This document shows positions 16,813 to 41,145 of a DNA stretch of 64,000 nt, in pieces. The DNA lies in contig CAYRHW010000002.1 of the NCBI GenBank assembly GCA_964424305.1, positions 2,115 through 66,114 of the forward strand, in the 5' to 3' direction. Each line of letters starts with the position of its first letter. The stretch's first letter is position 1. Position numbers and translations under genes: made by a program. The notes beneath the pieces were generated by a model. That model was not told where the DNA came from, did not search any database, and saw only the letters and a list, made by a program, of their open reading frames with translations. Origin of the DNA: an uncultured Candidatus Saccharibacteria bacterium (GTDB lineage: Bacteria; Patescibacteriota; Minisyncoccia; Minisyncoccales; Staskawiczbacteraceae).

Positions 16813-17187
16813 TTAGTAATTGACCCTATTTATTAACAGGTCTAAAAGAGTTTTTAGTTCTACTTGAGCCTCTACCTCGTTATTGGAGTTAACAAACTTC
16901 TGCCACTGATCAAAAATTGGCTTGCTATTTATATCTCTTATGGCGTTCTCCAGTACGAGTCTGTCATCAAAAGAAACCTCCCCACCAGCATTTAAAATCT
17001 TTTCACAAAATATCTTAGTAAAGTTTATAACCTTCTCATTAAGTTGGTATGCCAAAAGTGTACTCTGAGTGACCCTTACTCTTTCTAGAGAAGCAAGATA
17101 CTGACCAATAAAAACACCGTCCATTAAAAGAAGAATAATAATTATTAGAAAAAGGAGTCTATCTTTTGGTATTTGCATATGTAACAA
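16813..17187 (-). CDS. small membrane-anchored protein, giant-protein-associated family (copy 1b)
   Basis: There is an N-terminal TM helix and the conserved motif FTKIF...SFDDRLVLENAIRD...IFDQWQKF...LLDLLINRVNY. It is a paralog of 17188..17547 and 30687..31055. Confidence 0.6.
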   Translation of the reverse strand: MLHMQIPKDRLLFLIIIILLLMDGVFIGQYLASLERVRVTQSTLLAYQLNEKVINFTKIFCEKILNAGGEVSFDDRLVLENAIRDINSKPIFDQWQKFVNSNNEVEAQVELKTLLDLLINRVNY

Positions 17188-17547
17188 CTATTGATTTATT
17201 TTCTCCAACAACAATTGGAGTAAATTCTTGGCCTCTCCCCCCACCTCTTGGTCAGGTGCTTTGGTAAATTTTTGCCACTGCAAAAATATATCGTTGTCCT
17301 TGGTCCCCCTGACCGCGTTCTCCAGTGCGAGCCGATCCTCGAAGGATATGTTTCCGTCTGTTTTCAATACCAAAGTAACAAACATTTTCGTAAACCCTAT
17401 AACCCCTTCATTATACCTATAGGTATTCACTTTTTGGGTTAGAGATTTAGCGTTTGACCACAATATGCAATTTCCCACAGCAGAAAACATTAAAACCATC
17501 AAAAGTATAATTGTTATAATTAAAAGTATTAATGATTTTCTGGCCAT
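17188..17547 (-). CDS. small membrane-anchored protein, giant-protein-associated family (copy 1a)
   Basis: There is an N-terminal TM helix and FTKMF...SFEDRLALENAVRG...WQKF...LLQLLLEKINQ. It starts 3 bp after the giant gene's stop. Confidence 0.6.
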   Translation of the reverse strand: MARKSLILLIITIILLMVLMFSAVGNCILWSNAKSLTQKVNTYRYNEGVIGFTKMFVTLVLKTDGNISFEDRLALENAVRGTKDNDIFLQWQKFTKAPDQEVGGEAKNLLQLLLEKINQ

Positions 17548-17549
17548 GG

Positions 17550-20500
17550 CTATGGGGTATTTTTACCCTTTTTATTAATTAATTCCCTAATCCTGTCTCG
17601 GTAAAAATTAATCGCAAGTAAAATAACGATGACCAGGATAATACCGGCCTTCCAGTCAAAATATCTGAGCAACCAGAAACTCTTTTCTAGCCCAATGTTC
17701 TGATGAATTTCATTTCCCCAAACAACCTCAATGCTTTCCCCCCTGTAGGGGCTATAACCCTTGGCCTCAACCAATAATTGATATGTTCCCTGTGGCGCCA
17801 AGAAGGCGTAACGACCAGTATCGTCGGTGATTTGGGGGTTTATCTGCTGATAATTCTTAGCTGGCCATAATTCATATTCTCTAGTTTCTGGATTTAACCA
17901 GAACAACGATGCCTTAGCACCCTCAATTCTCATTTTTCCTTGGCTTGTTTGGTAATAGATGTAACCTTCTGGGTCAATAACAGTTACTAACTTTAATTCT
18001 TTCGGAAGCAACTTAATATTATTATATTCCATAACACTTATTATCTCGTACTCTCCGTCAACAACGGGCATTGATACATTCGCCGTCCAAATTCCATCGC
18101 CATCAGCGTCTTCGTAATAGAACTCTTTAACAACAAGGGCCTGCTCTAGATTCTCTCCTCCGTCGGTTAACGCTGGAGACAGCAAAGAAGCAGCTGTTTT
18201 TTTAAGAATACTTTCCGTTGTTTCCTTCTTCCCTTTCTGCTTAAATATTAAATAACCTTTAATAGTTTTTACGGATCCCTCCGGCTTAATAATCAGCTGA
18301 ACATCCTTCCCAGCCATAACGCTTACTTTTTGCTGAATTTCTCCCTGGTCGCCCATGGTAATCGAAGTCTCCTTATCAACTGTTCCACTGCCACTTCTGA
18401 CAAATAGAATGTCTGTTGGTACCCTCTCTTTTAATTGCAGGGTGAGATGATCTAGAGAGACTCCTTGGGGAAGAGTGAAGTCTTTGGGATCCACTAATGG
18501 ACTACCGAGCCCACTTAACCGAACATTCTGCTCAATGGCCTGAGAAAGTCCAGACAAAGATAAACTATTGCCATATAGCTTCTCCACATCAGTTATCTTT
18601 GTTATCCCAATTTCCGTCAAAGCTTTGTCTAACTGCGGAAACTTCCCAGCCAAAACTCTTAATTCTTTTGGTAGGGGTTGCAAAACAAACCTTTCAATTG
18701 ATTTTGTCGGCATTGTATCCCAAATGTTAGACAAAGCATCGGGTGCTTTTTGAGGAACCACTTCCTCTACTGGGGGCTGGGGCGGTATCGGTGGCTCTAT
18801 GGGTGTTATGGGTGGAGTCGGAGGATTAATAATATCAATTATTGGAGTAAGAATATTCGGTATCCGGTAATTAATGGTGGCGGTTATTGTGTCAGATGAA
18901 ACCCCGTAGGTAGTAAAGAATTTAACATAAACAGTCTTTTGGCCCTGGCCATCAGATAATCTCCATTGCTTTGTAATTGCGTAGGATTCTTGTATCGCAT
19001 TGGTGAAATTAGGATCATTGGACACAGACATTCTAAATGTATCAGAGCTACCCCTAAGGGTAAGAGCAACATCCTGGGTGTTAGTAGTCATGGCCCCATT
19101 ATTTATCTGGACCAGGAATCCTGTTAAAGGAGCTGATGGAGGAAGGTAGGCTCCGACCGGGAGACTTCCTCCCCCAGGACAGCCAGCGGTTGTGACTGAA
19201 GAGGTAGACATTGCTGTTTCTGCGCCACCATTCTTCGCCTTAACTGTGAACGTGTAAGAAGTATTGCAAACCAAACCAGAGGAAATCCATGTGGTTGTTG
19301 TTATCCATCCAGAGTTAGTAGAGTCAGTTGTATTTTCGCCATAATATTCGGTGCCCGTTGGGTTAGAATACGCTGTCCAAGTTACTGTGATCTGACTAGC
19401 AGAATCGGCCACCAAAGAAAGAGTAGGTGGAGTAACATCAATATTAATGTCATAGGCTGAGGCCGTTGTTGCAGAGTTCCCGGCAACATCTTCTCCATAT
19501 AGACAGATATACTTCGTATTGTTATCTACGGTGGTCTGATTTATTGAATCAGAATCAGTTTTAGAATAACTTCCGGCAGAAACAGGACAAACTCCATCAG
19601 CATCATATTCCCACTTCTTTACTGAGGCATCCCCCCAACTGCCTGTGACAGTATCTGAAATAACAGGACCCGCTGCAACGTTGTTAGAGAAAGAAAGAGT
19701 TGGACCAGTAGTATCAATAACCAAAGCCTTATTAGCACCCAAAGAATTAGTAGATCCCGGCGAAGCTAGCGTTAATATGGCATTATTCCCCACCGCATCT
19801 TTAATGGTGCCACCGTTGAGAACCAGGGCTGTTGTTGAAGTATAATCAAGGTCAGTAGAGGCGTTACCGGAAGCCACCGTGTAATTAAACGTAATCGTAT
19901 TTGTACCCGAGCCAGATAAATAATCTACTGCTGTGGTCGACGGGCTTGAAGTTGATAAAATTAATTGAGGGATCCCGCTGACAATAACATCTTCACTGAA
20001 ACTTACCTGGACTGGAACTATTTGGTTAATCGTGTAGTTACCATTATCAAGGGGAGATGTGACCCCGGAAACAGTGGGAGCAGTGTTATCCAAAACTGCA
20101 GACACTGTTGTAACAGAACTTGGATTTCCGACCGGGTCTATTGCCTGAACGTGGATATAGTATGTGCCGTTTCCCGAAGATTGAGTTACGGTGATAGTGG
20201 AATCATAGCTTCCCGAAGGCGAACTTCCTATAGTTTGGTCAACTAAATAACGGAAAGTGGCGGTGCCGTCGCTTGAACTCCATGTCCATGTCTTGCTCTT
20301 TGCCGGCGTACTATCATCACTAAGTCCGGTGATATTCGGAGCAGTGTTATCAACTGTAAATGCCGTGCTTGGTCCTGCACCAAGAGAAGTGTTCCCGGCG
20401 TTGTCTGAAGCAGTGGCAGCTGCAATTGAAATACCAAGGGTGCCGTCTCCGGTAATGGAAGATATGGTAACCGTTCTTGTTGCTGTTCCAGAACCAGAAA

Positions 20501-23500
20501 CAGCAACACTTCCGTCTGCGCTTCCGGTTTTATTTAAGGTTACATTCCCTGCCACCAAACTAATCGAATCTGCTCCGCCATAAGTTATCGTATAAGTAAT
20601 TGGACCTGTGTTGGTTAAACTTGCCGATGGGGCACCGATTGAATTTGTCGGCGCGGTGATATCGTATAAAATATTATTTGCGCTATAGTAAGCCGTGGAA
20701 TTATTTGCCACGTCTTTGCATTCCAGTTTCATACAATAGTAATGGCCGTCTGTTCCGATAAAACTTGCCGAATGAGTCGTGCTCCATGTTGTTATAATTG
20801 TGTAAGATTTTCCACTGCAACCGGTGCCCGGCGAAGTTCCGACATCTGAATAAGAAATCTGATATGGCGCGGCGTTCAATCCAGAGCCCGAGTCAGTACA
20901 GGTTCCAACATTTGCAATATCAACCGTGGGAGCCGAATTGTCATAAATCAAAGTCGCAGGACTCACGCCCGGAGGACTTACCAAACTCGGCGGAGTGGTA
21001 TCAAAATCCCAATTTGTGTTACTTCCTGGCACTAAATCCGTACAGCCCGACGGAATAATGTGATTTGTTTTTGCATAAGAATAAGAAACAATTGCGTTAG
21101 TTACGGTCGTGGACGCCGGCGCCAAAATATACCAGGTTACAGCCGCAGAACTTGGAGCCAAAGTAATATTATTTGTTCCTGCTCCACCGGAAATATTTAA
21201 AGTTGTAGAAATCGTGTGCGGAGAAGCAAGCGATGCAGCAGCAAATTTTAATGTACTTGCATTTGTAATATCATTCAAAATTGCTGTCTGCAATTGGTCA
21301 GCAAAAGTCACTCCGCCCGATGAAGCATTTGTTACGGTTAAAATATTAAAAAGTTGTCCATTGGATGTGATATTCTGCGTGCCCGTACCATTGAATGTGA
21401 CGGCGGATGTACCCGGAGTAATACCAATTTTGGTCGTATCCCAGTCGCCCTTTATAGATATATTCGTGGCGCCGAGATTGGCTGTATTAATGGTGTTGTC
21501 ACCATATACGGCGGAGAAACTGCCGTTAATGGTTATTGCGGGCGTCCCGGTTGAGAGGTCCAGTTTACCAATATCAGTGCCGGTACCCGAAGCTAATTTC
21601 AGATTGTTCACAGTTAACGAGTTGCCTCCGGTATTTAAGGTCATCGGTGATATGCTTCCTTGAGAATTCCAATAACCCACATAAAGATCTCCGGCTAAAT
21701 TCCAATTCCCTGTCATTGTTATGGTTTTCGCGGTTGCCCCATATGACTGGAAATATACCCTGCCTGTGCCATCCCTTGTTAGTGCAGGAAGATTCACATT
21801 TGCCGATGGCGTTATCAACAAACCCGCGTTACCTTTCAGTGTTGTCGCAATATTTACAAAATTATCAACCCCACCAGTTAAATTTGTGGCGTTATCCAAG
21901 GTCAGCGTCGCGCCACTAACGGTTAAAGTACCCACACCAGAGGTTCCTACGTTAAGAGTCGTAGTAGTTGTGTAGGTGCCCGATCCAGTTATACTAAGAT
22001 TTATAAAATTATTGTTCGCGCCTGGGGATAAATTGCCGGTCCCCGTAAGATATACGGTACCGCTCGTTGGTGTGAACGTGCCAGCGCTCGAATCCCAGTT
22101 GCCGCTGGCTGTAATTTTAGAATTGCCCGAGCACGTGACTGTACCGCCCGTGCCAATTGTCATGTCTGCTGTTGTCCAACCGTTGACTGCCGAGGTGCCA
22201 ATGGTTACTGTTCCGCCGGTGACGGTTGAGTTACCAGTAACAGCTAAATCTTTATTTCCAATTGCAAGAGTGCCTCCACTGGCAGTTAAGCTTCCGCCCA
22301 CTGATATGTTAGCTGAGCCGGCGATGGCGGTTCCATTTGAATTAATAAGATTGCCGGCCGCGGAAAGAGAATTTGTGGATTCTGCGCCAATAGATTTTAC
22401 AAAGTGCCCGCTTCCCATGGTCTGGTCGGACTGGTTATTGTATTCGGTCAAAACCCAACCGGTTGAACGGGCGGTGGTTGAAACACGGAACTCATCAAGG
22501 ATACCATTTAAAAATCCGTTGCCTCCACCTACAGCAGCGCCGTATCGTCCTACATAGAATGTTTGAGACGAATCCGATCCTGATGTCCCAACTCCGGTAT
22601 TGGCGCTACTTACAGCCTGAGAAACTCCGTTAACATATATTGTCATTGTTGGATTAATAGAATGCGTATCTCCCTCTATAACAACATATGACCACGCACC
22701 GGTTGAAGGGGCCGTGATCTGCTTTCTTGCGTTCGTAGTTGCTCGCTCAGTAGTAAATCGCAAAAGTGGCCCCGTTTCAAATGAAATCCACCATCCAGGG
22801 CTCACTGTATTGCCATCATTCCTGGCAGCGATAGTCCCAGAAGTATTCGTAGTTGGGTTTATCCAAAAAGACCACGCAACAGATCCACTGCCGCTAGTAT
22901 TAACTAAGTCAGCAATTGACGAGCCTGTCCCCATGTTAATATATTGTGAACTTGACGAAACAAAATTGCCCCCGCCGTCGATTTCTCCTGGTGTAGCTGT
23001 GGCGCCGCTGACAGTTCCGTTGTTTACACCCAAAGAATCATTTGCTGTTAATGATGTGCCGTTTGGTAAATGATAAACTGCGGTATACCCATTACTCCAC
23101 ACCCCGGTTGCATTCTGCTGGCTGGCGCAAGTGGGGTTTCCGTAGTTCATATATAGCGTGGTGTCAGCGGTAGATGAAAGAGTTGGCACCTTCACCCATA
23201 CATATGCTGTGTCGCTTGACCCGCCCCTAGAATAATATTCAATTTCGTGAGTCAGTCTTGTTCCGCTGGCATCCATAAATACTAAATCCTGGCCCGCTGA
23301 TTGGGCGTGCGCGTAAAGGTCGGCGTCGCCGTTTATATATAGAAGGACGGGGAAGTTTGTCTGGTCGCTTGATACTTTGGTGTAGTCAATGGTGACGGCT
23401 TTCTTATAAGCCCAGCTGTAAAGCGTGCTACTGCCCGAGTGAGTAAAGTTATTAAAAGAACTTGAGCCAAGAGAAACGTCTTGCGTGCCAGACCCATTAA

Positions 23501-26500
23501 AGTCAACTGTGCCCGAGTTGTGTGTAAATGTTCCGCCAGCTTGCAACCAATTTCCGCCAACTGATAAAGTTCCCGAGCAAGAAGTTAAAGTGCCTGCAGA
23601 TATGGCTACGTTTCCCGATACAGTAACGTTTGTGCCTTGAAGAGCCCATGCTCCGCCCGTGCCGTTGATGGCAATGTTATTAAATGTACTGCCACCCGTG
23701 GTAATTGTTTTTCCGCTGGCTGTTCCGTTAAAGGTGACTGTTCCGGTTTCTGGAACGAATGTTCCTGAGTTTGACCAGTTTCCGCCAACTGTAATTGCGC
23801 ACGCGGCTCCACTGCAGTTTGCAGGCGAAACATCTAGCGTTCCTGCTGTAATTATTAAGTCATTAGTTACGTTTAATGCGGCTCCCAAAGTAAATGTTCC
23901 TTGAGTGTTAAGCGTTAAGCTGCCTAATGTTAAAGCTCCTGCGGTGCTTCCGCCCCCGCTGGCATTGTTGTTTGTAATTGTTGTTGCGGCTCCCGTGACC
24001 GTGACTAACGTGATATCTCCGCCAGCGGTGTAAGTGTTGCCCAATCCATTGTCTAACCGTATATCAACTGTTCCTGCGCCAGCGTTTAATGTGGTGCCTC
24101 CAGCCATTGTGATTACTGCTGTTCCAGAACTCCTGTTGGCATCAACCACTCCTGTTGATGCTTTTTCGTTGGCGTAGAGTGCAAGGTTGCCATCATCGGT
24201 GGTTATATTTGCGTTAATTAGAATACTTCTTCCGGCTTGCAGGGTTAAGTTGCCCCCGTTGCCTGATCCATTACTGGCCGTAACTGCGCTACTAATTGTA
24301 ATATCATTGTTGGCTTGCAATACAACGTTGCTGCCAGTGTTTAATGTTGTGGTTAGAAATGCTGGGGTTAATGTATATGTTGCAGTTGGGTCGTAAGCGA
24401 AGGTGTAACTGCTCGGGGCAGAGGCAAATGTGTTAGAAGAGACGGAATAGACTTTTTGAGCAGTAGCTTGATAGAAAGAAACAATCGTATGGTTATTAAC
24501 TACATAATCTCTTGGAACGGCCATGCTGGCACTCGCCGTAGGGCCGATAATACTATTACTACTAGAAATTGCGCCCGCACAACCCGTAGTGCCACTGCAC
24601 AGTGTAACTTCACCTGCATTTACTGTGGCTCCATTATCCCAATTAGCATTATAAACAACATAGTTTCCATTACTGAGACCTACAGACGAGGCCGCGCCAT
24701 CACTGGTCGTTGTTCCATAAAGCGAGTTAGAACTAGAAACTATTCCGGTAGTACCAGTTGTACCATTAATAAATGTGGTGGCACCAACGTCTGTTGCTGG
24801 TGAATTATCCCAACCTCCGCTACAATTTACAAAGTTTCCATTGGCAAGAGCCAGAACGCGGGGGCTGGAGCTACCACTAGCTACAGCGCCTATAGCATCA
24901 TTCGCAGTTGCTCCATAAATAGAATTAGAAGTTGAAACTGCTTGGCCGTTGCAACTATTTGTTGTGCCATTGCACCAGACTAATGCTCCAACATTAGCGG
25001 TGGCTCCGTTGTCCCAAAACGGACTACTTACCATATAATTTCCATTAACCAAAAGAGGGGTTATATATAAACCACCATTAGCACTACCTCCCACTTGGTC
25101 ACTAGTTGTTGTTCCGTAAAGCGAATTAGAGGTTGAAACAACGCCAATGCATCCAGTTGTACCACTGCACCAGGTAACAGCTCCAGCATCTACGGTTGCA
25201 CCATTATTCCATCCTGGCATCGCTACCACATAATTGCCGTTAGTCAATGGATTAACTTGTGAGCCGGAGGCGTCGCTGGCGGTGCTCCCGTAAAGCGAAT
25301 TAGAAGTAGTTACTGAGCCGGGAGTACAACCAGTCTCGCCGTTACACAAAACAACCGCTCCAATGTCTGCCTTTCCCCCGTTGTCCCAATATGGACTACC
25401 AGTAATATAATTTCCATTAGATAGGGCCTTAATAAAATATCCAATTTGATCGCTTGTTGTGGTTCCATACAAAGAATTAGAAATGGAAACTGCTTGACCA
25501 TTGCAACTACCAGTTGCGCCATTACACCAGGTTGTTGCGCCCACATCAACAGTGGCTCCGTTGTTCCAACTATAATTAGCAACCACATAATTACCATTGG
25601 TAAGAAGAGCGGGAGGGAGACTACCAACATTATCATTAATTTGCGTGCCATAAAGCGAATTAGAAGTTGAAACCGCGCCGAAGCATCCAGTTGCACCACT
25701 ACACCAAGTAATAGCCCCAGCATTAGTCGCTGCTCCATTATCCCAATTATAGCTACTAACCACATAATTCCCATTAGTTAACGTTTTAAGAACCGCCCCT
25801 ACATTATCATTTGCGGCAGAACCGACAAGCGAATTAGAAGCAGAAACCGGCTGGCCGGCGCAACTATTTGTGGTTCCATTACACCAGGTGACAGCCCCGG
25901 CGTTAGCTACAGATCCGTTGTCCCAAATCGTTGAACTAATTGCATAATTACCATTACCTACCTCAATAACAGCAAACGTCTGCCCCTGGCCTATCCTATC
26001 GCTCGCCGTTGTTCCATAAAGTGAATTAGATGTATTCATTGTTTGGCCGGCACAGTTGTTTGTTGCGCCGTTGCACAAAATAGCACCTCCGGCATCCACC
26101 ACAGCTCCATTATCCCAATTCCAATCGCTCACAACGTAATTACCATTAGATAAAGCCAAAAACATGGTTGGCATAGAAATAGAGCCCATTTGGTCACTAT
26201 TAGTAGAGCCAACAAGAGAATTAGAAGTAGAAACCGTACCCGAGCAACCAGCTGTGCCGCTGCACCAGGTTACTGCACCAGCGTCTGTCACGGCTCCATT
26301 GTCCCAAGTTGAACTTCTAATAACATAATTCCCATTAGTTAGGGAAGAAATACTATTCGAACCAACCTGGTCGCTTGCAGTTGTACCGGTTATTGTAGAA
26401 ATTAAAGCGCCCGTTTCTCCATTAAATAAATAAACAGCTCCTGCATTACTTGCTACAAGGTCGTCGCCATAGTCCGCTACTGGCACATTCCCATTAGTAA

Positions 26501-30639: not shown

Positions 30640-30672
30640 AAAGCGACGCTGGGCGTCGCTTAAATCACCCTC
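30640..30672 (-). terminator. rho-independent terminator of giant cassette 2 (AGCGACGC-cca-GCGUCGCU + U6)
   Basis: A perfect 8-bp GC-rich hairpin is followed by a T tract on the minus strand, just downstream of 30687..31055. Confidence 0.7.
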
Positions 30673-30686
30673 TACAGCAACTCTTA

Positions 30687-31055: not shown

Positions 31056-31068
31056 AAAAATTTATAAA

Positions 31069-34000
31069 TTAATTAGTTGCTGTAATTATTCTTTTTTGCA
31101 TTCTGTCACGATAAAAGATGTAACCAGAAAAAATGAACATTAATATAATAACTAAAATTTTCCAATCAAAATATTTCACAAACCAATTGCTACTCTTAAG
31201 CTCGATATTTTCATGCACCCCAACCCCATTTTTAACCTCAAATTCTTCGCCCCTATAGGACGTGTAACCACGAGCCTCCACGGTTATATAATAACTCCCT
31301 TCCGGGACCAAGAAAGAATACTTACCAGTAACATCGGTTACTTGTGGGTTTGTTTGTTGATATTTCTTTGCTGGCCAAATCTCGTAGACTTTTGTCTCAG
31401 GGTTCATCCAGTATAGGGTGACCCTGCTATCTCTAATTCTTATCTGTCCTTCTGGCTTTTGGTAATAAATATAACCCTCTGGATCAACAACGACGATTAG
31501 GCTTGTTTGAGTTGATTTTATCTTTCTATCTTGATAATCAATGACCGTTGTAATTTCATAGTCCCCATCAACGGCTGGAGCAATTATATCTGCTATCCAA
31601 ATCCCATCTTTGTCTAGATCTAAATAATCAAACTCTTGTAAAACTAATCTATCTCCGTTATTGGCCACTTCCTCTTTGGGACTCCCCAGCAAAGAGGCAG
31701 TAATCAAATTTGAATCGCCCCCGTTCAAAGACACTGAATTTCTTTGCTTAACAAGGAAATAACCGGTTACCGCCCTTGCTTGCTTCTCTGGCTTAACAAT
31801 TAGTTGTAGCCCCTTATTTGAAATAACATCTATTTTCTGCTGTGGTTCACCCTCTTGGCTGATAGAAACATTGATATTTTGGTCAATTAGCCCGCCACCA
31901 GTTCTGGCGAAAACAATTTCAGTGGGTATTTTCATCTTTGCGCCATTGGTTAGATCGCCGATAGAAACTCCCGCTGGAGCAAATCCACCCGTACCCATAC
32001 TGGCTCCGGGCAAACTTACCATTTCCGCTAACCCGGGCAACACAAAGTTATTCCCCAACAATTTACTGACATCTGATGCCCTAGAGACACCTATCTCTCT
32101 AAACGCCGAATCCAACTGAGGTATCTTCTGAGAAAGGACGCTTAACTCTCTCGGCATCGGCCCCAGAATAAAGGTCTCAACATTCCCCACCGACAAAACA
32201 TCTATTTGTTTCCTAAATACAAATGGTGTTTCTTTCGTGACAACCTCCTCTATCGGAGGACTCTCTACGCTTGGTACCTGACCCGAACCTATTATTCCTC
32301 CTATCCCTTCCACCACCTTACCGATACCATTAACAATTTGCCCCGGCAGCTTAGTTATACCCTCGGCCACATTGCCGGTTGACTCAATCACCTCTCGGAC
32401 AATTGTTTTCTTCCCGAGATATATTGAATCAGAGTATGCCTCCGATGACTGACCGTAGGAAGTAAAGAATTTAACATAAACAGTTTTATCTCCATTTCCT
32501 TCTGGCAATACCCAGCGAACAATATCTTGATATGGTTGCTGAACTGCGTTTGTAAACTCTGGATTATTAGATATGGCCATTCGCTCAACGTCTGAGCCTG
32601 CTTTCAACAAAAGGACGACTTCTGGATTTTCTGTAATAGAGTCGTTGTTATTTATAAAAACTGAGAATCCCCCAGCAGGAATAACCGGCGCCACATAGGC
32701 ACCAGAAGGTAATCCACTACCACCACACCCCTTTGTATCTATGGTGGCTACATCGGTAAAACTAGTTTCTGCATCATTTCCATTTCTTGCTTTAACTCTA
32801 AAGGCATAATTGGTATCACAGGTTAAGCCAGAAGAAGACCAGAACAAAGATGTTACCCAACCAGAATTTGTATTGTTACTAGTGTTTTCGATATAGTATT
32901 GAGTGCCCGACGGGTTTGAATTGGCTGTCCAAGTGGCTGTAATTTGACTAAGAGAATCAGCGCTTAAGGTAAGGGAGGAAGGAATATTAGCTAAGGTGTA
33001 TTTAGAGGAAGGAAGAGAGTAGGCAGATACATTACCCATCACGTCTCTTGCCTGCACACGATAGGCGTATATTGTTCCTGGGTTAAGTGGCGTATCCACC
33101 AAAGTATTTGAAGCTTGCCATCCTAATTCAGTAGTATCTCTCTTAAATTGATAGGCGGCAGTAGCGTGAAGACCAGACTCTGAATCAGTGGCTGTATTAG
33201 CCACCACAGTTATGCCAGTTGTTGTGTCGGCTGTAGTTGAAGAAATCCCAATGTTGGTAGGTGGGGTTACATCCCCATAGTTAATATCTGCGTTACAAGT
33301 TTCATCAAAACTACAGAATATATCAAGGGCACAATCGGCGGTTACTGTACAAGCAGCACCTATGCCCCCACAAATATTATCGGTACCACAAAAGTGGCTA
33401 CCGCAATCGTTATTGGTGGTGCAGGAGCCACCAAGGGCCACAGCCTGAGTGGTTGCAGATAAGGTGCTGGAATAATTAGAGATGTTTCCTGTTGCATCTT
33501 TGGCTCTGACTTCGTATGTATATTGAGTGTTTGGAGTTAAGCCTGAATCTACATGTGTTGTTGAGGATTGCCAACCAGATGAAGTTGCTCCTGGGTTGCC
33601 AGTAGTTTCTTGGAATTGATATGGGCTGGCATCTAATCCTGAGCCACTGTTATCTGTTGCTGTTCCGCTAACAACTGTAATTTGAGTTGATGAGTTGGCC
33701 GTTGCAGAAGATAGCGCAACGGTCGGAGGGGTAAATACCCAATTTAGGTTGTTGCCACTACTGGTGAAATAGCTTCCTGTGATTTGCTTGCCGACACCAA
33801 CCAATGCATCAGAATCTTTAACATCAACATAGCTCACGGCTAGAGTTGCAGTTGGATCAACGCTCAACTTCCATTGGGTCGGAGTAGAATTTGATCTTAA
33901 GCTTAACAAATTTCCTGCAATTCCATTCAGAGTAATGGTTCCACCTGCAGCGATTGATGTTGTGGATCCGGAAGCGAAGGTTAGGGTGCGTGCAGTGGTG

Positions 34001-37000
34001 ACGGATTTGGTTAGGTTATAGAAGGTGGTGTCGCCGGTGATGGATTGGTTGGTACCATTAAAGGTAACGGCTCCGGTGGTTGTAGAAAATGCACCGTTGT
34101 TTGCCCAGTTTCCGCCAACAGAAATATTATGGCTTCCCATGGTTAAGGTTGAGCCAGCATTAACAACTAAGTTGCCACCAGTACTAATATTTGAGCTAGG
34201 GGTAAATGTGGAAGATGTCGTGTATTTATTGAAATTCAAGAGTCCTCCGGCGGTGATGCCAGCGACCGTGTTTGAGCTACCTTCAGCGGTTAAACCTATG
34301 TCGGCACTGCCCGTTGTAACCAAGTCTCCACTGAGTACTAAGGTTTTGTTGTAAACAATAGTTGTGCTAGCAGAATTGGTCATTGTGCCAACAGTTAAAT
34401 TTCCCGTTGAACTATTTGTAACCCATATATTGTTATGATTTCCAGTTATGTTGATACCACCTGAGACGGCAGCGGGTATTGTGTGAGAACCAAAGCCGCC
34501 AATATCGTAATTATCTGCCGTCAAGTTCAATGTTGTTGCGGTTATAGTGGAAGAACCATCTCCATAAATTGGCCCAGAGTTGGTAAGGTTTACGGTTGTA
34601 GCTCCAATTGCTCCGGTTATATTTAATCCAGCTGCAACTTTATCCACCAGCGTAAATGTTTTTCCGCTGGCGCTGACTGTGCTAAGATTTGTAATATTAT
34701 TATTTGCATTATCAAGAGTGCTGGTTCCGCCGGTATTTGTATAAACAAAAGTGGTGGCTGTTAGCGGACCGGATTGAGTTGTGGTGCCGGTATTGGTTGA
34801 GTTATTAAGGGTAAATGTGCGTCCTGTGGTGTTGATGGTGCCAAGGGCGTTGATGGTGTTAAAAACGCTGGACAATGTAGTGTCGGCACTTGTATTTGTA
34901 TAAATAAAAGTATCCGCCCTCATAGGGTTCGACTGTGTGGTGGTGACCGTGTTGACAAGAGTGAATGTTCTTCCGCTAACGTCAATTGTGCCAAGGGCGC
35001 TGATTGCGTTTTGTTGGTCAAGCGTGGTGTTAGCTGATGTGTTTGTATAAATAAAAGTAGACGCAGTTAAAACTCCTGTTTGGGTGGTTGCGGCAGTGTT
35101 GGTAAGAGTGAATGTTCGGCCCGTGGCATTGATTGTGCCAAGCGCGCTAATTACATTGCTTTGGTTAAGCGTAGTATTTGCCGAGGTGTTTGTATAATTA
35201 AATGTAGCGGCGGTTAACGCCCCAGTCTGAGTTGTGGCAACGGTGTTTGTGAGGGTGAATGTTCTCCCTGCGGCACTAGCATTAAAACCACTAATCGCAT
35301 TATTTTGATCAAGTGTAGTATTAGCTAAAGTATTAATATAGGTGAAACCAGCGGCGGTTAAGACGCCGGTTTGAGTGGTGGCGACTGTGTTGGTAAGCCT
35401 AAACACCATATTAGTACAATTAATTGTACCTAGCGTGCTGATAACATTTGATTGAGTTAGCGTTGAATCGTTTGAAGTATTTGTATATACGAAAGTGCCG
35501 GCGGTTAACACGCCCGTTTGAGTAGTTGCAACGGTGTTTTTTAAATTGAACGTGCGGCCAGCGGCATTAATCGTTCCAAGTATCCCGATTGCATTGCTTT
35601 GAGTTAATGTCGTGTCGGCCGATGTGTTGGTGTAGACAAAGGTTCCAGCTGTTAAAACTCCAGACTGAGTTGTGGTTGCAGTGTTTACAAGAGTTACTGT
35701 TTGCCCGGTGGCAGTAATTGTGCCCAAAGCCGAAATTGCATTTGTTGCGCTGTCTAATGTTGTGGCTCCAACAGAGTTGCTTATTGCTAAGGTCCCGACG
35801 GTAATTGTGCTTCCAGCATACTGAGTAATACTACCACCCGTGTCTGCTAAACTTAGAGTTCCTGTAACGCTTGAAGTGTCAATCACAAGCGGAGTTGCTT
35901 GAACTGTTTTAATGTATGCATTGCGACCGGTTTGAGTTGTTAATTTCAATGTTCCCGTAACTGCCACATCTATTTCTAAATTGGCCCCACTGGCGCCTAT
36001 ATCATAACTAGTGCCATTAGTAATCATCTCTAGATTAACAGCGGAAATTGGGTTAGTCCCAGCACTGGCTTCTTTAATTCTTGATGCTTGGAGCTTAAAA
36101 CTAGTGTTACTGAAATTAATTGGACCATAAATGTTCGCTGTATTTAAGGAGCCAGTCAATCCTGCTTTCCCCATAATAATTTTACTATTAACCCCAGTCA
36201 CTCCCGCGCCAATAGTCACCAAGCCGGTAGGGTCAGCATCAAAGCCAGTGCCTAAGTCTTTTCTACCACCAAGAGCCATCCCAACGTTAGTTCCTCCGGA
36301 TGGTAGAAGGCTAAGAGTCCCCGTAGTAACAAATCCGCCGGTTGGAGTATTCCCCGGAGTATATCTATTAGTAGTAATCGTTATATTTCCAGCACCGGCC
36401 GAAATTGCGATACCATCACTTTGCTGATAAAGGCCGGAACCGCAATTAATCGACACGTCGCTGCCAGAACCATAGGTTGTGTCTACATTACCGGTAACCC
36501 AAATACCGGTGTTACCATTAGTTATGGTCAGCACCCCGCGTAAGGTTGTAACTCCCAAATATTGGATTGCGTTTGTTTGCGTTCCAAGATTTAATCCTCC
36601 GCCGGTGTCTGTAACAGACAAAGTTCCGGCAGTTACGGCGCCGGTTTGATCCAGGGCGAGGGTATTTTTTAAGGTTACCGTCTGACCGGTTGCATTTATC
36701 GTCCCCAAATGAGTTATGGCATTTGTCGTACTGTCTAGTGTTGTTGCTCCAACTGTGTTGTTTATTGCTAGTGTTCCGGCAGTAATTGTGGTTGATGCGG
36801 CCTGAGTTATCGCGCCACTTGTATCATTAAACAAACTCAATTTGCCACCGACAGTTGAGGTTCCAATTGCGTATCCAGAAGCAGAAGCAGACTCCACATA
36901 TGCATTGTTAGAACCCGCTGTCGCCAAATTAACAGTTGTTACAGCAAAATCAATTGCGGAAGCAAAGGATGCTCCGATATCTCCGGTATAAGCATTAAGC

Positions 37001-40000
37001 GTTAGGGTTGTAGCAGTAATTGCTCTTACTTTCCCTCCGTCTGTGATAGATCCTGCGTTTAATGTTAATGTTTTGCCCGTGAATGCAACGGCGGCACCAA
37101 TAGTCAAAGCTCCAGTGCTTGAAGTGCTTCCAATTACGATTGGGCCAGTTGCTCCGGTCAAAATAGTTGATATTTCATCTGCAGACAAGTCAAACGCCCC
37201 ACCGCCGCCCAACGACATGGTTGTGCTTGCGGTTGATGGCTTTAATGTTAAGGTTCCAGAAGTTGCAAATGGATTATTACCAGAATTAATATTAATTTGT
37301 ATTACATCGGCAGTGATAGTAATAGCACCGCCAATTGTTGAAGTTAAATCTCGGTTGGCATATTGCGAATAAGTTCCGGTACCGCAATTAATTGCTATCG
37401 TGCCGTTTGAAGTTACAGATATGTCTCCATCAACATTAAGGCTAGCATTAGAATTCGTAAAACTAAAATCTCCAACGGAACTCGAATCACGCATTAACGT
37501 AACAGCATTAGCACCACCCAAATTAACTGTGGAGCTACCGATTACTGATAAGTTGAGCGCGTTAATTACTCCGCTTTGCGCAACTGCCCCGATTGAAGTT
37601 AAATAAAATGTTGCGCTGGTTGTTACGTTTCCTAAATTTGTACTATCGCCGGTTGAATTAAGATAAATAATACCTGAACTGTTCCCAATTACTATTGCGC
37701 CGGTTGTTTTAACATCTAAATAATCGCCACTGGCTCCGATATCGCCACCGCCCACGAGCGTAAGCGCCCCTGTTCCCAAATCAAAATTGTCTGCAGTTGT
37801 GTTTCCATCTGTCATCGCGGTATTAAAATTAACCGTAACTGCTTTGTTAGACACAGTAGTGATTTTTAAAATATCTGTTGCCGTCCCACCATTAATCGTT
37901 GTGTCGGTATTGAATGTTACATTGTTAATATCCAAAGCTCCCGTGTTGCCAGCGGCTCCAATTGTTAAACTTGTGCAATTGGAATTAATTGCCAATATTT
38001 CTTGGTCGCTCAAATTAAATGTTCCGGTTGGCGAACCATCTCCAATACCAACGGTTGCGTTGGTCGTTTCCGGTTTTATTGTTAAAGTTCCAAGCACATT
38101 AATACTTGAGCCAGCAGAAGTACCAAGCTCCATCCCATCACCAATTAGCGTGGTAGTGCTATCCTGTGTCCCTCCGGAAATTCCATACACGCCTTGGGTA
38201 AATGTCCCATTCCCGACATCAATTAAAAGCGATGTTCCAAAACTTATCTGACCAGTCAGAGCAAGATTATTACTCCCGTTATCTAAAGAAAATCCTTCTG
38301 AGACAACAGTATCATATAGGTTTGAAATATTATTTATATTGCCGTTTAGGTCTACATTACTAACACCGTAGCCACCAACGGCTAGGGTTGTTGCCGATAT
38401 TGCTGCTGATTGAAAAACCTCGTCTGCCGATTCAATTGTTAATAAATTTATCTGTCCTGAGCCATTTTTAACCGCACCATTAAAATCTAACGGACCAGTA
38501 AAGGCTCGAATATTTAAATTATCCTTCGTCTCAATGGCACCCAAATTACAACCAGAGCCACAAACCATTATTATGCTTGTGTCGTAACTACTAGATAGGG
38601 CAGATATTGTGCCCGCCGATGAATCAATCACACTGACGCCCGCACCATAGCCAATCTCAATGGTTGCATCGTTGACTATTAAATTTCCCGTAATAATTAA
38701 AGAATTTAATGCATTGCCATCTGCAATTTTAAACGGATGGCCATTGGAGAAATAGTTTATACTAGAAATTGTTAAATCAGATGCTCCGGCGTTAGTCCCG
38801 GCATCCAAATATAAATAATTAGAATAAATATTTCCAGGTGAATTATTAAATGACCCAGAACCAGAATTGTCTGTATCAACTTTTAAATACACAACCCTTT
38901 CTGGGGTACCCACGGTACCGATATCTCCAGTTTGAGCAATGTTGCCAGTTGAATAAATATATGTGTCTGCCACTCCTCCTCCACCGCTACAACCCTCGGT
39001 GACGCCACCAATAGATACCGAAGACGGTGCATAAACGTTTCCGATCCTAAGGTCTCCACTACAGGTCTGCACACCAGTAAGCGTAAAAGAGCCAGATCCG
39101 GCATAGGTCCCGTTTAGGCCGATTACACCAGTGTCGTCAGAATAAATTGACCCGCCAGTTTGATTAATCGAGCCGGCGCTGACAAGAAGTTGGCCTCCGT
39201 TTGACCAAATATTTCCACCGCTCAGTAATAACGTCCCATTTATAGTTAACAGAATACCATCGCTTGGATTGATATTTCCTCCAGCCATTGATAAATTGCC
39301 GGCAACTGTGATGGCACTTGTCATATATATGGTGCTATCGTATCCAGCCGAAATAGTCATGGCGGCCACACTAACATCAGACATAGCAACTGCATCATTA
39401 TCGCAATCGCCGTCAAAAATAATTGTGTCGTCAACGGTTGGCGCAGAACCAGCGTCCCCCCCACCACAACCAGAAGGATCTGTTGTTTTCCAGGCACTAC
39501 CAGTAGCAAGATTTATATTATCAAAAGCATTTCCCACCCAATATAGCGTCCTTCCCTCCGGGTCGGTAATTAAATCAAAATTAACACTTCCAATAACCCT
39601 TAGGTCAAATGAATCAGTTGGCGCTGGAAGGTTTGTAAGAAAGAGTTTGTATTTGGCCTCGTCGGTAATATTGAAGGTGGTAATTAAATTTTTGCCGTTC
39701 TTCTCATATACTTCAACTTGAGCCGGATTTCCGTCGGCTGATTTCGCATATAGAGTAATGTCGTTTACACTTGTGAGTTCTTTTTCAAATACTGCTCTTA
39801 CATATTCACCGCTGTTAACTGTTTCTGACCAAACTCCGTCTTGCGCTTTTGTCTGGTCATAAATATCAGAAATTAATTCTTTGCTAGCATCCAGGTGCCA
39901 CGCCCCGGTGATATTGATAACGATTGTATATGTTTGAGTTGAAAGGTGAGGAACAATCCATTCAATGTAATCTATAAATCCATTATTGTTTAAATCATAG

Positions 40001-41145
40001 GCCGTGAATACTGTTGGTTCTTGCGTCCCATCTGGTAATTCATGAAAAATCTTTATAGCTTCCTGTCTATCTATGGGGATGGTATCGTCTAACTCAGTGA
40101 AAGCAAGAACGTTGGTATATTGTAGCTCGTCGGGGGCGGAGATGGTGACTTCCTTCTCCTGTTGAATTGGATCATTATTGGTGATGACCTCTGTAATTTC
40201 TGGAGCAGGTGTTTCGTATTCAACGGTGACGAATTGCACCTCTGGAGCAGGAACCTCTACTTGTGGTTGTTCCGTTGGAGTTTCCTCTATTATTGGTTCC
40301 TCAACAACCGGCTGTTCTTCTGTTATCGGCGTTGTCTCGGGCTCCGCTGGTGTCACTTCTGGGCTTGCAGGAACCTCCTCTGTAGCTGGCGTTTCAACGA
40401 CTGGTTGTTCCTCGGAGATAGATGGCGCCTGATCAACTAAGTTCCCCACATCAACAAAAACAGCGTCTGGTGTTTGGACGACATCTGTATCTTCTCCACC
40501 CACCAACTGAGAGACCAACTGATCGACCGTGGTCTCAACGCTGGCAGTAGCTCTTTTAATGTAATTCAAAACACTGCCCAAGGCTGACCTCAATGGATTA
40601 ATCTTGGCGATCTGAATACTCTGTTTTGCTTGGGCGATAAACTGCTGCCTGCTCCCCAATGTAATTACTTCTTTTGAGGGAGTGACTCTCTTCGAAATTG
40701 TCTTAACAACAACATTGCTAACTGATTTTGGAAGCTTGATGAAAGATTGGCCGCTCTTAATGATACTGACTGGGATTGTCTTTGTTTGTCTTACTATTTG
40801 GCCTGCAATAATCTGTGGCTTGTCTTCGTAGTATATTCCATTCTTGGCAACTATCTTTGCTTCGGGAACATTTGAGAAAATGATGGAGAAAAAACTGACA
40901 ACACTCAAAAGTGCGATCAAAAGTAGGCCAAGAGAAAAGGCAAGGGTTACTTCTTCTTTTCTTTTCTTGTTGCGAATAAATTCTTTTACAAACTCTGGTT
41001 TGATGAAACTGTGGAAAGTTGCTTTACCCCTCTTCTTTTTCTTTGGAAAGAGAGAAATGATAGAAGATTGGATTTTAGCAAACCATTCTTTGAGAGAAAC
41101 AAAAACATCTTTTAGTGTTTCTGTAATTTGTTGCAGAGTTAACAT
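31069..41145 (-). CDS. giant cell-surface protein 2 (3358 aa), paralog of giant 1 at both termini with a different middle
   Basis: The N-terminal about 60 aa, the TM helix, the acidic P/E-rich linker and the about 150-aa post-linker domain are all homologous to giant 1. The middle is T/S/G/N-rich beta-helix-like with 48-aa tandem repeats (TFTLTNTVATTQTGVLTAGTFVYTNTSANTTLDQSNAISALGTINATGR). There are two FN3 domains and a Cys-rich knot (GGSCTTNNDCGSHFCGTDNICGG). The C-terminal conserved domain and TM helix are homologous to giant 1 (DPEGYIYYQ...WPAK.YQQ.NPQ.TD.TG.Y.F..P.G.Y...EA.GY..YRGE). Confidence 0.85.
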   Translation of the reverse strand: MLTLQQITETLKDVFVSLKEWFAKIQSSIISLFPKKKKRGKATFHSFIKPEFVKEFIRNKKRKEEVTLAFSLGLLLIALLSVVSFFSIIFSNVPEAKIVAKNGIYYEDKPQIIAGQIVRQTKTIPVSIIKSGQSFIKLPKSVSNVVVKTISKRVTPSKEVITLGSRQQFIAQAKQSIQIAKINPLRSALGSVLNYIKRATASVETTVDQLVSQLVGGEDTDVVQTPDAVFVDVGNLVDQAPSISEEQPVVETPATEEVPASPEVTPAEPETTPITEEQPVVEEPIIEETPTEQPQVEVPAPEVQFVTVEYETPAPEITEVITNNDPIQQEKEVTISAPDELQYTNVLAFTELDDTIPIDRQEAIKIFHELPDGTQEPTVFTAYDLNNNGFIDYIEWIVPHLSTQTYTIVINITGAWHLDASKELISDIYDQTKAQDGVWSETVNSGEYVRAVFEKELTSVNDITLYAKSADGNPAQVEVYEKNGKNLITTFNITDEAKYKLFLTNLPAPTDSFDLRVIGSVNFDLITDPEGRTLYWVGNAFDNINLATGSAWKTTDPSGCGGGDAGSAPTVDDTIIFDGDCDNDAVAMSDVSVAAMTISAGYDSTIYMTSAITVAGNLSMAGGNINPSDGILLTINGTLLLSGGNIWSNGGQLLVSAGSINQTGGSIYSDDTGVIGLNGTYAGSGSFTLTGVQTCSGDLRIGNVYAPSSVSIGGVTEGCSGGGGVADTYIYSTGNIAQTGDIGTVGTPERVVYLKVDTDNSGSGSFNNSPGNIYSNYLYLDAGTNAGASDLTISSINYFSNGHPFKIADGNALNSLIITGNLIVNDATIEIGYGAGVSVIDSSAGTISALSSSYDTSIIMVCGSGCNLGAIETKDNLNIRAFTGPLDFNGAVKNGSGQINLLTIESADEVFQSAAISATTLAVGGYGVSNVDLNGNINNISNLYDTVVSEGFSLDNGSNNLALTGQISFGTSLLIDVGNGTFTQGVYGISGGTQDSTTTLIGDGMELGTSAGSSINVLGTLTIKPETTNATVGIGDGSPTGTFNLSDQEILAINSNCTSLTIGAAGNTGALDINNVTFNTDTTINGGTATDILKITTVSNKAVTVNFNTAMTDGNTTADNFDLGTGALTLVGGGDIGASGDYLDVKTTGAIVIGNSSGIIYLNSTGDSTNLGNVTTSATFYLTSIGAVAQSGVINALNLSVIGSSTVNLGGANAVTLMRDSSSVGDFSFTNSNASLNVDGDISVTSNGTIAINCGTGTYSQYANRDLTSTIGGAITITADVIQININSGNNPFATSGTLTLKPSTASTTMSLGGGGAFDLSADEISTILTGATGPIVIGSTSSTGALTIGAAVAFTGKTLTLNAGSITDGGKVRAITATTLTLNAYTGDIGASFASAIDFAVTTVNLATAGSNNAYVESASASGYAIGTSTVGGKLSLFNDTSGAITQAASTTITAGTLAINNTVGATTLDSTTNAITHLGTINATGQTVTLKNTLALDQTGAVTAGTLSVTDTGGGLNLGTQTNAIQYLGVTTLRGVLTITNGNTGIWVTGNVDTTYGSGSDVSINCGSGLYQQSDGIAISAGAGNITITTNRYTPGNTPTGGFVTTGTLSLLPSGGTNVGMALGGRKDLGTGFDADPTGLVTIGAGVTGVNSKIIMGKAGLTGSLNTANIYGPINFSNTSFKLQASRIKEASAGTNPISAVNLEMITNGTSYDIGASGANLEIDVAVTGTLKLTTQTGRNAYIKTVQATPLVIDTSSVTGTLSLADTGGSITQYAGSTITVGTLAISNSVGATTLDSATNAISALGTITATGQTVTLVNTATTTQSGVLTAGTFVYTNTSADTTLTQSNAIGILGTINAAGRTFNLKNTVATTQTGVLTAGTFVYTNTSNDSTLTQSNVISTLGTINCTNMVFRLTNTVATTQTGVLTAAGFTYINTLANTTLDQNNAISGFNASAAGRTFTLTNTVATTQTGALTAATFNYTNTSANTTLNQSNVISALGTINATGRTFTLTNTAATTQTGVLTASTFIYTNTSANTTLDQQNAISALGTIDVSGRTFTLVNTVTTTQSNPMRADTFIYTNTSADTTLSSVFNTINALGTINTTGRTFTLNNSTNTGTTTQSGPLTATTFVYTNTGGTSTLDNANNNITNLSTVSASGKTFTLVDKVAAGLNITGAIGATTVNLTNSGPIYGDGSSTITATTLNLTADNYDIGGFGSHTIPAAVSGGINITGNHNNIWVTNSSTGNLTVGTMTNSASTTIVYNKTLVLSGDLVTTGSADIGLTAEGSSNTVAGITAGGLLNFNKYTTSSTFTPSSNISTGGNLVVNAGSTLTMGSHNISVGGNWANNGAFSTTTGAVTFNGTNQSITGDTTFYNLTKSVTTARTLTFASGSTTSIAAGGTITLNGIAGNLLSLRSNSTPTQWKLSVDPTATLAVSYVDVKDSDALVGVGKQITGSYFTSSGNNLNWVFTPPTVALSSATANSSTQITVVSGTATDNSGSGLDASPYQFQETTGNPGATSSGWQSSTTHVDSGLTPNTQYTYEVRAKDATGNISNYSSTLSATTQAVALGGSCTTNNDCGSHFCGTDNICGGIGAACTVTADCALDIFCSFDETCNADINYGDVTPPTNIGISSTTADTTTGITVVANTATDSESGLHATAAYQFKRDTTELGWQASNTLVDTPLNPGTIYAYRVQARDVMGNVSAYSLPSSKYTLANIPSSLTLSADSLSQITATWTANSNPSGTQYYIENTSNNTNSGWVTSLFWSSSGLTCDTNYAFRVKARNGNDAETSFTDVATIDTKGCGGSGLPSGAYVAPVIPAGGFSVFINNNDSITENPEVVLLLKAGSDVERMAISNNPEFTNAVQQPYQDIVRWVLPEGNGDKTVYVKFFTSYGQSSEAYSDSIYLGKKTIVREVIESTGNVAEGITKLPGQIVNGIGKVVEGIGGIIGSGQVPSVESPPIEEVVTKETPFVFRKQIDVLSVGNVETFILGPMPRELSVLSQKIPQLDSAFREIGVSRASDVSKLLGNNFVLPGLAEMVSLPGASMGTGGFAPAGVSIGDLTNGAKMKIPTEIVFARTGGGLIDQNINVSISQEGEPQQKIDVISNKGLQLIVKPEKQARAVTGYFLVKQRNSVSLNGGDSNLITASLLGSPKEEVANNGDRLVLQEFDYLDLDKDGIWIADIIAPAVDGDYEITTVIDYQDRKIKSTQTSLIVVVDPEGYIYYQKPEGQIRIRDSRVTLYWMNPETKVYEIWPAKKYQQTNPQVTDVTGKYSFLVPEGSYYITVEARGYTSYRGEEFEVKNGVGVHENIELKSSNWFVKYFDWKILVIILMFIFSGYIFYRDRMQKRIITATN
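34650..36900 (-). repeat. intragenic tandem 144-bp (48-aa) repeats (about 10 copies) plus a larger about 1-kb internal duplication in giant protein 2
   Basis: Periodic near-identical DNA units (…gtgaatgttc[tg]ncc.gt.gc…attgtgccaag.gcgct.at…) and the repeated TFTL.NT..TTQ.G peptide are visible. Confidence 0.7.

Follow-up and report, generated by a model that had tools for sequence, protein, structure and literature searches.

A conserved C-terminal module and its small membrane partner in two giant surface-protein cassettes of a Patescibacteria genome

We analysed a 64,000-nucleotide (nt) stretch of DNA from an uncultured Candidatus Saccharibacteria bacterium (GenBank assembly GCA_964424305.1, contig CAYRHW010000002.1, positions 2,115 to 66,114; hereafter the window), which carries two cassettes, each formed by a giant gene followed by one or two genes for small membrane proteins. 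Sequence surveys of related loci strongly support the view that the small gene is the partner of a conserved module forming the last ~390 amino acids (aa) of each giant, here called the C-module, and that the partnership does not depend on giant size. We consider it probable (about 0.6) that each cassette is an operon for a surface-display fibre together with its dedicated membrane partner.

Both cassettes lie on the minus strand, as do all features below unless marked otherwise, and their genes were defined from a six-frame list of open reading frames (ORFs). Giant G1 of cassette 1 (17550..29528, 3992 aa) is an intact ORF with a host-like GC content at third codon positions (GC3 0.39) and only two transmembrane (TM) segments. 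It is followed by S1a (17188..17547, 119 aa), an N-terminally anchored four-helix-bundle protein whose start lies 2 nt past the G1 stop, and by S1b (16813..17187, 124 aa), a second partner in tandem that abuts the S1a stop and may instead start at an ATG three codons inside its TTG start. Giant G2 of cassette 2 (31069..41145, 3358 aa), likewise an intact ORF with two TM segments, is followed by S2 (30687..31055, 122 aa), which starts 13 nt past its stop. The small genes were assigned by alignment, S1a and S1b also by a profile hidden Markov model (HMM) of the family (E ~1e-51 for S1a). A preliminary description of this DNA had reported two small genes in tandem in cassette 1 and one in cassette 2, which these coordinates confirm, with spacers of 3-13 bp; the 13 nt between G2 and S2 stands, whereas G1 and S1a are separated by 2 nt, not 3.

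The pairing recurs widely. Starting from the small gene, we retrieved 70 metagenome loci, 61 of which had enough upstream sequence to be judged, and the pair was present in 57 of these. A smaller set of genomes and contigs, partly overlapping the metagenome set, gave the pair in 19/21 distinct loci, and at 11 genome loci, and likewise on the contigs, a C-module ORF (HMM E 1e-93 to 1e-194) preceded each small gene on the same strand. The window and every one of loci L001-L020 and L024-L028 contain the pair; some loci of different collections are the same contig (e.g. L001 and L029). In the opposite direction, a small-family gene lay immediately downstream of the C-module gene in 6/6 loci. Together with the metagenome counts, this bears out the proposal that the small protein is a dedicated, tightly coupled partner. 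Adjacency is conserved in ~93% of loci whose flanks otherwise differ, most often with a spacing of -13 to a few tens of nt, and two of four sampled distant family members were paired, the other two being orphans. Tandem small genes, as in cassette 1, occur in two to three metagenome loci, including L040 and L041. Loci were retrieved by means of conserved peptide patterns. As the diverse small-family alignment (A3) offered none that was suitable, the narrower alignment A2 was used; retrieval is thus biased towards members that keep the FEDRL[QA]LE motif, and very divergent small genes are under-sampled.

An Avd-like gene separates the partners in four of the 57 paired metagenome loci. Genes of this Avd-like or 23S-rRNA intervening-sequence (IVS) type, encoding four-helix bundles, lie between or beside the partners without a nearby reverse transcriptase (RT) at L046 9619-9900, L047 320-701, L056 815-1153 and L059 3790-4171, and also occur without a nearby RT at L017 1993-2466 and L026 7466-7843.

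Giant size, which the preliminary description had treated as defining, is not a feature of the family. Complete C-module proteins, counted as stop-to-stop ORFs, range from 593 to 3992 aa with a median of ~970; eight of 28 reach at least 2000 aa, and G1 and G2 are the two largest. Small-family genes do occur widely without an adjacent giant, an outcome that the preliminary description had set against its own proposal: most partners are proteins of 600-1000 aa, but these carry the same C-module. The ectodomains joined to the module vary from about 200 to 3600 aa.

The C-module comprises a helical subdomain, two Ig-like beta-sandwiches, a transthyretin-like (CarboxypepD_reg-type) beta-sandwich, a TM helix and a basic tail. 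In G1, the region shared with G2 (17577..19493, aa 3346-3984, delimited by BLASTP and hydropathy) consists of an FN3 domain that matches 1k85, a ~100-aa conserved domain, a Pro-rich linker, the C-module, the TM helix and the basic tail; the C-module proper spans nt 17571-18758 (E 8e-151 over aa 3591-3986 with an HMM built from 62 members) and its TM helix, placed by hydropathy, nt 17604-17660. The corresponding features of G2 are the shared region at 31087..33048 (aa 2700-3353), the C-module at nt 31084-32241 (E 2e-155) and the TM helix at nt 31114-31170. The two modules are 43% identical to each other and 42-63% identical to homologues. The AlphaFold2 (AF2) model of the G2 module, with a predicted local distance difference test score (pLDDT) of 84 and a predicted template modelling score (pTM) of 0.74, shows a short helical subdomain, three beta-sandwiches and a long TM helix. 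Its fold matches the tandem Ig-like stalks of the Gram-positive adhesins and pilins UafA, SdrD, BcpA, SpaD and RrgA, as well as the beta-sandwich-plus-TM proteins OST48, NOMO and the Sulfolobus S-layer stalk SlaB. The flanks of the TM helix are unusually conserved (WWLKxxDWK...YNFYRDxIRE).

When the final 399 aa of G2 served as query, at least 122 proteins were retrieved, with E-values down to 1e-134 and lengths mostly of 580-690 aa. Carriers are labelled Brenner-, Staskawicz-, Taylor-, Nomura- and Liptonbacteria and other Paceibacteria, taxon names being those given in the records of metagenome-assembled genomes (MAGs). Judged by these homologues, the C-module is a lineage-wide module of Paceibacteria-type Patescibacteria, whose proteins, where named at all, are called 'carboxypeptidase-like regulatory domain-containing protein'. 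Short members combine a normal signal peptide, four to five 'YAWGENxGWINF' repeats, a Pro-rich linker, the C-module, the TM helix and the tail. In members of ~650 aa the repeat reads 'GYAWxENxGWINF' and is present four to five times, within the N-terminal ~200 aa of P0018, P0024, P0073, P0100 and P0114 and also in L011, L013 and L017; it matched no Pfam family, and some of these proteins additionally have a Cys-flanked DDDxDGxxDYPxDPGC motif.

Against Pfam and NCBIfam, the N- and C-terminal modules gave nothing beyond fn3 and a CarboxypepD_reg (PF13620) match below the gathering threshold of 32.3 bits, and the C-module profile found nothing significant among Protein Data Bank (PDB) sequences. 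An LPXTG-like motif ([LIV]Px[TSA][GAS]) was present in the last 70 aa of 0/62 C-modules, those of G1 and G2 included. The NCBIfam scan of both giants returned no family at E <= 0.1 and no sorting-signal model, and no sortase, exosortase or rhombosortase was found among the window ORFs of at least 100 aa scanned against Pfam.

The three small proteins form one family, aligning at 42% identity and sharing the invariant motif SF[ED]DRLxLENA[VI]R...[DQ]QW[QK]KF...LL[DQ]LL that the preliminary description had quoted. The AF2 model (S2; pLDDT 91) shows an N-terminal TM helix and a four-helix bundle predicted to be extracytoplasmic, with one long helix (residues 6-63) that holds the TM segment and continues as the first helix of the bundle. 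Invariant positions (R74, E78, W93 and L116) are found in the bundle only; the TM helix lacks conservation. A profile built from 14 proteins retrieved 453 clusters at 50% identity among 1.84 billion representatives, 405 of them at E <= 1e-10 and nearly all of 115-145 aa. HMM scans of the kind the preliminary description had proposed gave only noise for the small proteins in Pfam and NCBIfam, and the family profile found nothing significant among PDB sequences. A relationship to LemA, which also combines an N-terminal TM helix with a helical bundle and has a family member in the window at 8428..8982, was rejected (hhalign probability 0.9%). The literature found on giant and surface proteins of Patescibacteria, Parcubacteria and Paceibacteria yielded no description of the C-module with its small partner. 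The earlier statement that no described family matches thus holds for Pfam, NCBIfam, PDB and the literature found.

The giants share both ends. BLASTP aligned their C-terminal 664 aa at 42% identity (E 2e-164) and, in the N-terminal part, aa 1-310 at 33% and G1 aa 378-756 at 30%, in agreement with the ORFs and shared terminal modules first described. The cores, previously called completely different, gave no significant BLASTP alignment but have at least one short beta-helix motif in common (74 nt at 73%). Hydropathy identified exactly two TM-grade segments per giant, one close to each end, with Lys/Arg clusters on their outer flanks; both termini are therefore predicted to be cytoplasmic and the whole body external, as expected from the anchor at each end proposed before.

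The N-module of G1 (27609..29528, aa 1-640, defined by BLASTP against G2) consists of a basic cytoplasmic tail, a TM helix (aa 62-87, nt 29268-29345), domain A, an acidic Pro/Thr/Glu linker and domain B with an EF-hand-like DxDxNG loop. That of G2, recognized by BLASTP and homologue searches, spans 39556..41145 (aa 1-530), with its TM helix at aa 72-90 (nt 40876-40932). The N-module matches no Pfam family, and homologues are present in L012, L020, L004, L041, L052, L054, L073 and L082. The complete layout of N-module, core, C-module and small gene occurs in at least eight other loci, on proteins of 2009 to more than 3285 aa. One locus, L074 (2201-9857), holds a ~2560-aa homologue with N-module, DUF2341 and C-module that is split by a frameshift into two overlapping ORFs, reflecting either a sequencing error or a pseudogene; its reading as another instance of N- and C-modules encoded apart was considered and rejected, as the frameshift lies within the DUF2341 domain.

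The closest relative (L004/L010) encodes the N-module on its own, as a 795-aa protein whose 3' end is the variable region (VR) of a diversity-generating retroelement (DGR). The L004 VR (3375-3558) is 91% identical to its template repeat (TR, 4151-4334), which lies between Avd and the RT, and the DGR is followed by a signal-peptide-bearing C-module protein and then a small gene. As the N-module is a separate DGR target in L004/L010, it can be regarded as an independent anchor-and-stalk display unit; it is also homologous to FISUMP-domain proteins. DGRs with RT, Avd and a TR/VR pair recur beside the C-module/small pair (L004 1172-5549, L007 8388-11817, L027 335-4924, L053 5071-7171, and also L054, L055, L057, L063 and L098). 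Targeting of the giants or other C-module proteins themselves was considered and rejected: the VR lies in a neighbouring gene in L004, L007, L027 and L053, its host being the N-module protein in L004 and an Lcl_C protein in L007, and never a C-module protein. In the window, no TR/VR-like repeat was found within 16000-42500, and neither an RT nor an Avd homologue is present.

Domain B also links the giants to archaea. That of G2 (aa 308-529, 39559-40224) is 45% identical over 225 aa to P0293, a protein labelled Pacearchaeota that likewise begins with a basic tail and a TM helix, and domain B is 41-48% identical to MAG proteins labelled Pacearchaeota, Nanoarchaeota or Woesearchaeota (P0287, P0292-P0294, P0311, P0321, P0327, P0329). 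Going by these labels, a surface-display module may have been exchanged between Candidate Phyla Radiation (CPR) bacteria and DPANN archaea.

The variable core of G1 (19494..27608) was recognized by Pfam matches, an EtpA match and repeat families D1-D3 and D7. It holds an EtpA-like beta-helix (aa 787-965, nt 26634-27170, E 7.7e-10), a DUF5650 repeat array (nt 24543-26341, 503 bits over 10 stretches, cut-off 25), a DUF2341/LamG-like domain (nt 23100-23294, DUF2341 46.2 bits, cut-off 23.4) and further beta-helix, Ig-like and FN3 arrays. The G2 core (33049..39555; repeat families D4-D6 and D8, Pfam fn3) is made of beta-helix-like Thr/Gly/Asn-rich repeats and FN3-like domains, with a 49-aa repeat array at nt 34648-35694 (period 147 nt, Tandem Repeats Finder) and a weak Pfam DUF5649 match; it has no sequence relative in PDB. 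These cores agree with the earlier impression that the giants resemble surface fibres or adhesins.

The leaders are homologous as well, as had been claimed. The promoter and 5' leader of G1 (29529..29610; repeat D13) contain a TTGATT-17-TATCAT promoter-like site and a AAAAGAcaTCTTTT palindrome, and their homologue upstream of G2 lies at 41146..41229. The two are identical at 53/73 positions (29538-29610 versus 41157-41229), against 36.8 +/- 1.6 and a maximum of 41 in shuffles. A promoter scan found a promoter-like site in each conserved leader, and in both an AAAAG(N2-4)CTTTT palindrome precedes GTATTTTT. A search upstream of homologues from other genomes did not recover the leader motif TCTTTTGTATT, which is thus a within-genome feature. 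The first 123 coding nt are 75% identical and 25 of the first 40 codons are identical, whereas the remaining N-module is just ~30% identical. DNA identity of 73-75% is accordingly limited to the promoter, 5' untranslated region (5'UTR) and first ~40 codons (29414-29610, 41031-41229), the proteins being otherwise 30-43% identical; this pattern suggests gene conversion or shared regulation. The cassettes themselves are products of an old duplication in which only this segment is unusually similar, and the data support inheritance and duplication of giant and small gene as one unit. An intrinsic-terminator-like hairpin (30641..30661; 9-bp stem with six GC pairs, then a T-run) closes the G2-S2 operon.

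Between the cassettes, on the plus strand, lies a gene for a 268-aa peptidase (29749..30555), which the preliminary description had correctly placed and described as GC-rich with a sorting-like tail. Its GC content is 49.7% and its GC3 0.53, against 0.36-0.40 in neighbouring genes. The product is papain-like, with weak Peptidase_C39_2 and C10 matches, a signal peptide and an LPEPS-TM-RRK tail. By eye the tail is PEP-CTERM-like, but it matched no NCBIfam sorting model and the window holds no exosortase. No homologue was found in the 98 related loci checked or fetched. Composition and distribution thus mark the gene as a foreign insertion, probably acquired horizontally, and not as part of the cassette system.

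Housekeeping genes flank the cassettes (uvrA, groEL, LemA, an M48 peptidase gene, dnaG, sigma factors, rpoB, rpoC, ftsK, recA, RNase J and tRNA synthetases), and the MAGs closest in the databases carry the labels Patescibacteria, Staskawiczbacteria or Paceibacterota. Two relatives have a G2-like gene and small partner at the same site, directly upstream of uvrA-groES-groEL-LemA-M48. Cassette 1 and the peptidase gene, which separate this ancestral cassette from uvrA, are therefore additions in the present genome. Two sigma-70-like genes (367 and 326 aa, 11621-13792) lie between uvrA and groES/groEL in the window, whereas groES directly follows uvrA in L001 and L004. Elsewhere in the window are a Phage_holin_4_2-type membrane protein with four TM segments (41278-41673, plus strand), divergent from G2, and an AbiEii/DUF6036-like nucleotidyltransferase near recA (51436-51993). 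A group I intron lies at ~121-410 (Rfam RF00028, 78 bits, 168-388), flanked by tRNA-like halves (5' TCCGGTGTAGCTCAACGGTAGAGC..., 3' ...GGTTCGAATCCAGGCACCGGAGCA); the arrangement resembles a tRNA interrupted by the intron and missed by ARAGORN.

For a surface-display fibre with a membrane partner, the following model can be proposed. The giant would be exported in a Sec-dependent manner, its N-terminal helix serving as putative signal anchor and its C-terminal helix as stop-transfer, with everything between the two helices predicted to lie outside the cell. Translational coupling could keep the small protein in fixed proportion to the C-module protein, and its extracytoplasmic bundle would dock on the membrane-proximal pedestal formed by the C-module, or on its TM helix, to act as co-anchor or assembly chaperone. 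This specific role we rate somewhat below even odds. The Pro-rich linker would span the wall, and the variable shaft of beta-helix, DUF5650, LamG/DUF2341 and Ig/FN3 arrays would project outward and bind a host cell or substrate. The N-module may act as an independent second anchor, tethering the giants at both ends, a possibility raised by its existence as a separate retroelement-diversified binding protein in a close relative.

Several observations weigh against this reading. Five distinct small genes are orphans without an adjacent C-module gene (L021/22, L023, L034, L065/66 and L089), which shows that the small protein does not strictly require its partner gene as a neighbour. Between the two partners, pairwise identities correlate (Mantel r 0.57, with 0/5000 permutations as high), which fits co-inheritance, but this co-divergence is confounded by shared phylogeny. 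The adhesive role, moreover, is deduced from domain types alone.

Alternatively, the pair could form an envelope scaffold, an S-layer-like or wall-spacing structure comparable to the SlaB stalk, with the giants as enlarged variants that set surface architecture. The near-universal pair, usually single- or low-copy, the modest 600-700-aa members with their conserved 'YAWGENxGWINF' repeats and a linker typical of wall-spanning segments would all suit such a structure. We nevertheless regard it as unlikely: ectodomains so variable in size and content (593-3992 aa) fit ligand binding more than a lattice, EtpA-like and LamG-like domains are present, the loci recurrently neighbour DGR-diversified binding proteins, and the fold matches are generic beta-sandwiches. 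Conservation of the TM flanks far beyond the need of a passive anchor, a hydrophobic segment and basic tail like those of known sorting signals, and a strictly adjacent partner recall the LPXTG/sortase and PEP-CTERM/exosortase systems and raise the idea that the C-terminus is a sorting signal, possibly cleaved, with the small protein as machinery. The lack of an LPXTG-like motif in all 62 C-termini, of any NCBIfam sorting-signal match and of sortases, exosortases and rhombosortases among the window ORFs scanned makes this improbable, as does a small protein that has a single TM helix and no invariant residues other than R, E, W and L, and so offers no plausible catalytic set.

The preliminary description had also considered contact-dependent effectors with immunity partners. 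A giant beta-helical protein directly followed by small ORFs, two in tandem in cassette 1, does resemble contact-dependent inhibition (CDI) and Rhs loci, and the shaft has sequence similarity to TpsA-type proteins. However, the C-terminal ~390 aa, where a variable toxin would be expected, are the best-conserved part of the protein and terminate in a membrane anchor; the small family is conserved over 453 clusters and predicted to be extracytoplasmic; and no two-partner-secretion (TPS) domain, TpsB or toxin domain was detected. A polymorphic toxin system is thus rejected as very improbable, and we give equally little credence to the proposal that the giants are mis-assembled repeats or pseudogenes beside an unrelated small gene, a risk that the preliminary description had itself raised. 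Giant genes from metagenomes often break assemblies, and among the loci studied here L001 ends inside its gene and L074 is frameshifted. Against this, G1 and G2 are uninterrupted ORFs of 12 and 10 kb with host-like codon composition, complete homologous genes of 2000-3000 aa occur on independent contigs, and adjacency persists despite different flanks. Their internal repeats are only 60-81% identical at the DNA level, which makes assembly collapse unlikely and, with a GC3 matching that of the housekeeping genes, identifies both as native intact genes.

Beyond the operon model, a broader picture can be drawn only tentatively, and we hold it to be more doubtful than the anchoring or chaperone role. 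The C-module and its partner would be a general sortase-independent surface-display anchor of Paceibacteria with interchangeable ectodomains, and the giants would be doubly tethered host-attachment fibres mediating episymbiosis, made by fusing to the pedestal an N-module stalk that is shared with DPANN archaea by horizontal transfer and is elsewhere diversified by retroelements. Of the bacteria not yet in culture, Paceibacteria belong to the most diverse and abundant, and their host attachment and surface organization are essentially unknown. The conserved, unannotated gene pair marks major membrane-anchored surface proteins of this group, 600 to 4000 aa in length, can serve as a sequence handle by which such proteins are recognized even in fragmented metagenomes, and offers a concrete, testable interaction between pedestal and small partner. 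It also links CPR and DPANN surface modules with DGR diversification islands. If the partner is indeed an anchoring or assembly factor, it would represent a new way of fixing surface proteins in Gram-positive-like envelopes.

Among known systems, the wall-anchored adhesins and pilins of Gram-positive bacteria (MSCRAMMs SdrD and UafA; BcpA, SpaD and RrgA) are alike in their N-terminal export signal, long modular ectodomain, tandem Ig-like/CnaB-type stalk by the anchor, Pro-rich wall-spanning segment and C-terminal hydrophobic helix with basic tail. C-module proteins differ in having no LPXTG motif and no sortase in the window, in an anchor that is a conserved 390-aa module with a helical subdomain, in their dedicated downstream membrane partner and, for the giants, in a second, N-terminal anchor. 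The Sulfolobus SlaA/SlaB pair offers a fold-level likeness without sequence relationship, SlaB consisting of beta-sandwich domains and a C-terminal TM helix; here, by contrast, the stalk is fused to the displayed part, and the second protein, a helical bundle of 120 aa, does not form a lattice. Two-partner-secretion adhesins such as FHA and EtpA share the right-handed beta-helix shaft, as seen in the EtpA match of G1. Unlike these TpsA proteins, the giants have no TPS (Haemagg_act) Pfam match and no TpsB/Omp85 among their neighbours, and they are membrane-anchored instead of secreted; an outer membrane is not to be expected in this lineage.

The DGR-diversified surface proteins of CPR bacteria and DPANN archaea, with their C-type-lectin-fold (Fib_succ_major/Lcl_C) domains, are related through the N-module, which is homologous to the anchor and stalk of the DGR target in L004; the window, however, lacks RT, Avd and a TR/VR pair, and the giants carry repeat cores in place of a lectin-fold tip. 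Omnitrophota giants exceed 30,000 aa and have many TM helices and SecA-like domains (10.1101/2023.11.21.568195). Together with Giant1-5 of Apilactobacillus kunkeei (PMC12863079), they resemble G1 and G2 as extracellular proteins of several thousand residues that are implicated in cell-cell contact and occupy much of a small genome; we saw no homology of either to the N- or C-modules, and the literature found describes no conserved small partner of this kind. Neither giant adhesin-like proteins in symbionts with small genomes nor anchors of the Ig-stalk-plus-TM type are new in kind. What is new is a lineage-wide, unannotated pedestal module with a near-obligate 120-aa partner, and doubly anchored giants in which this pedestal is fused to a DGR- and DPANN-associated N-module.

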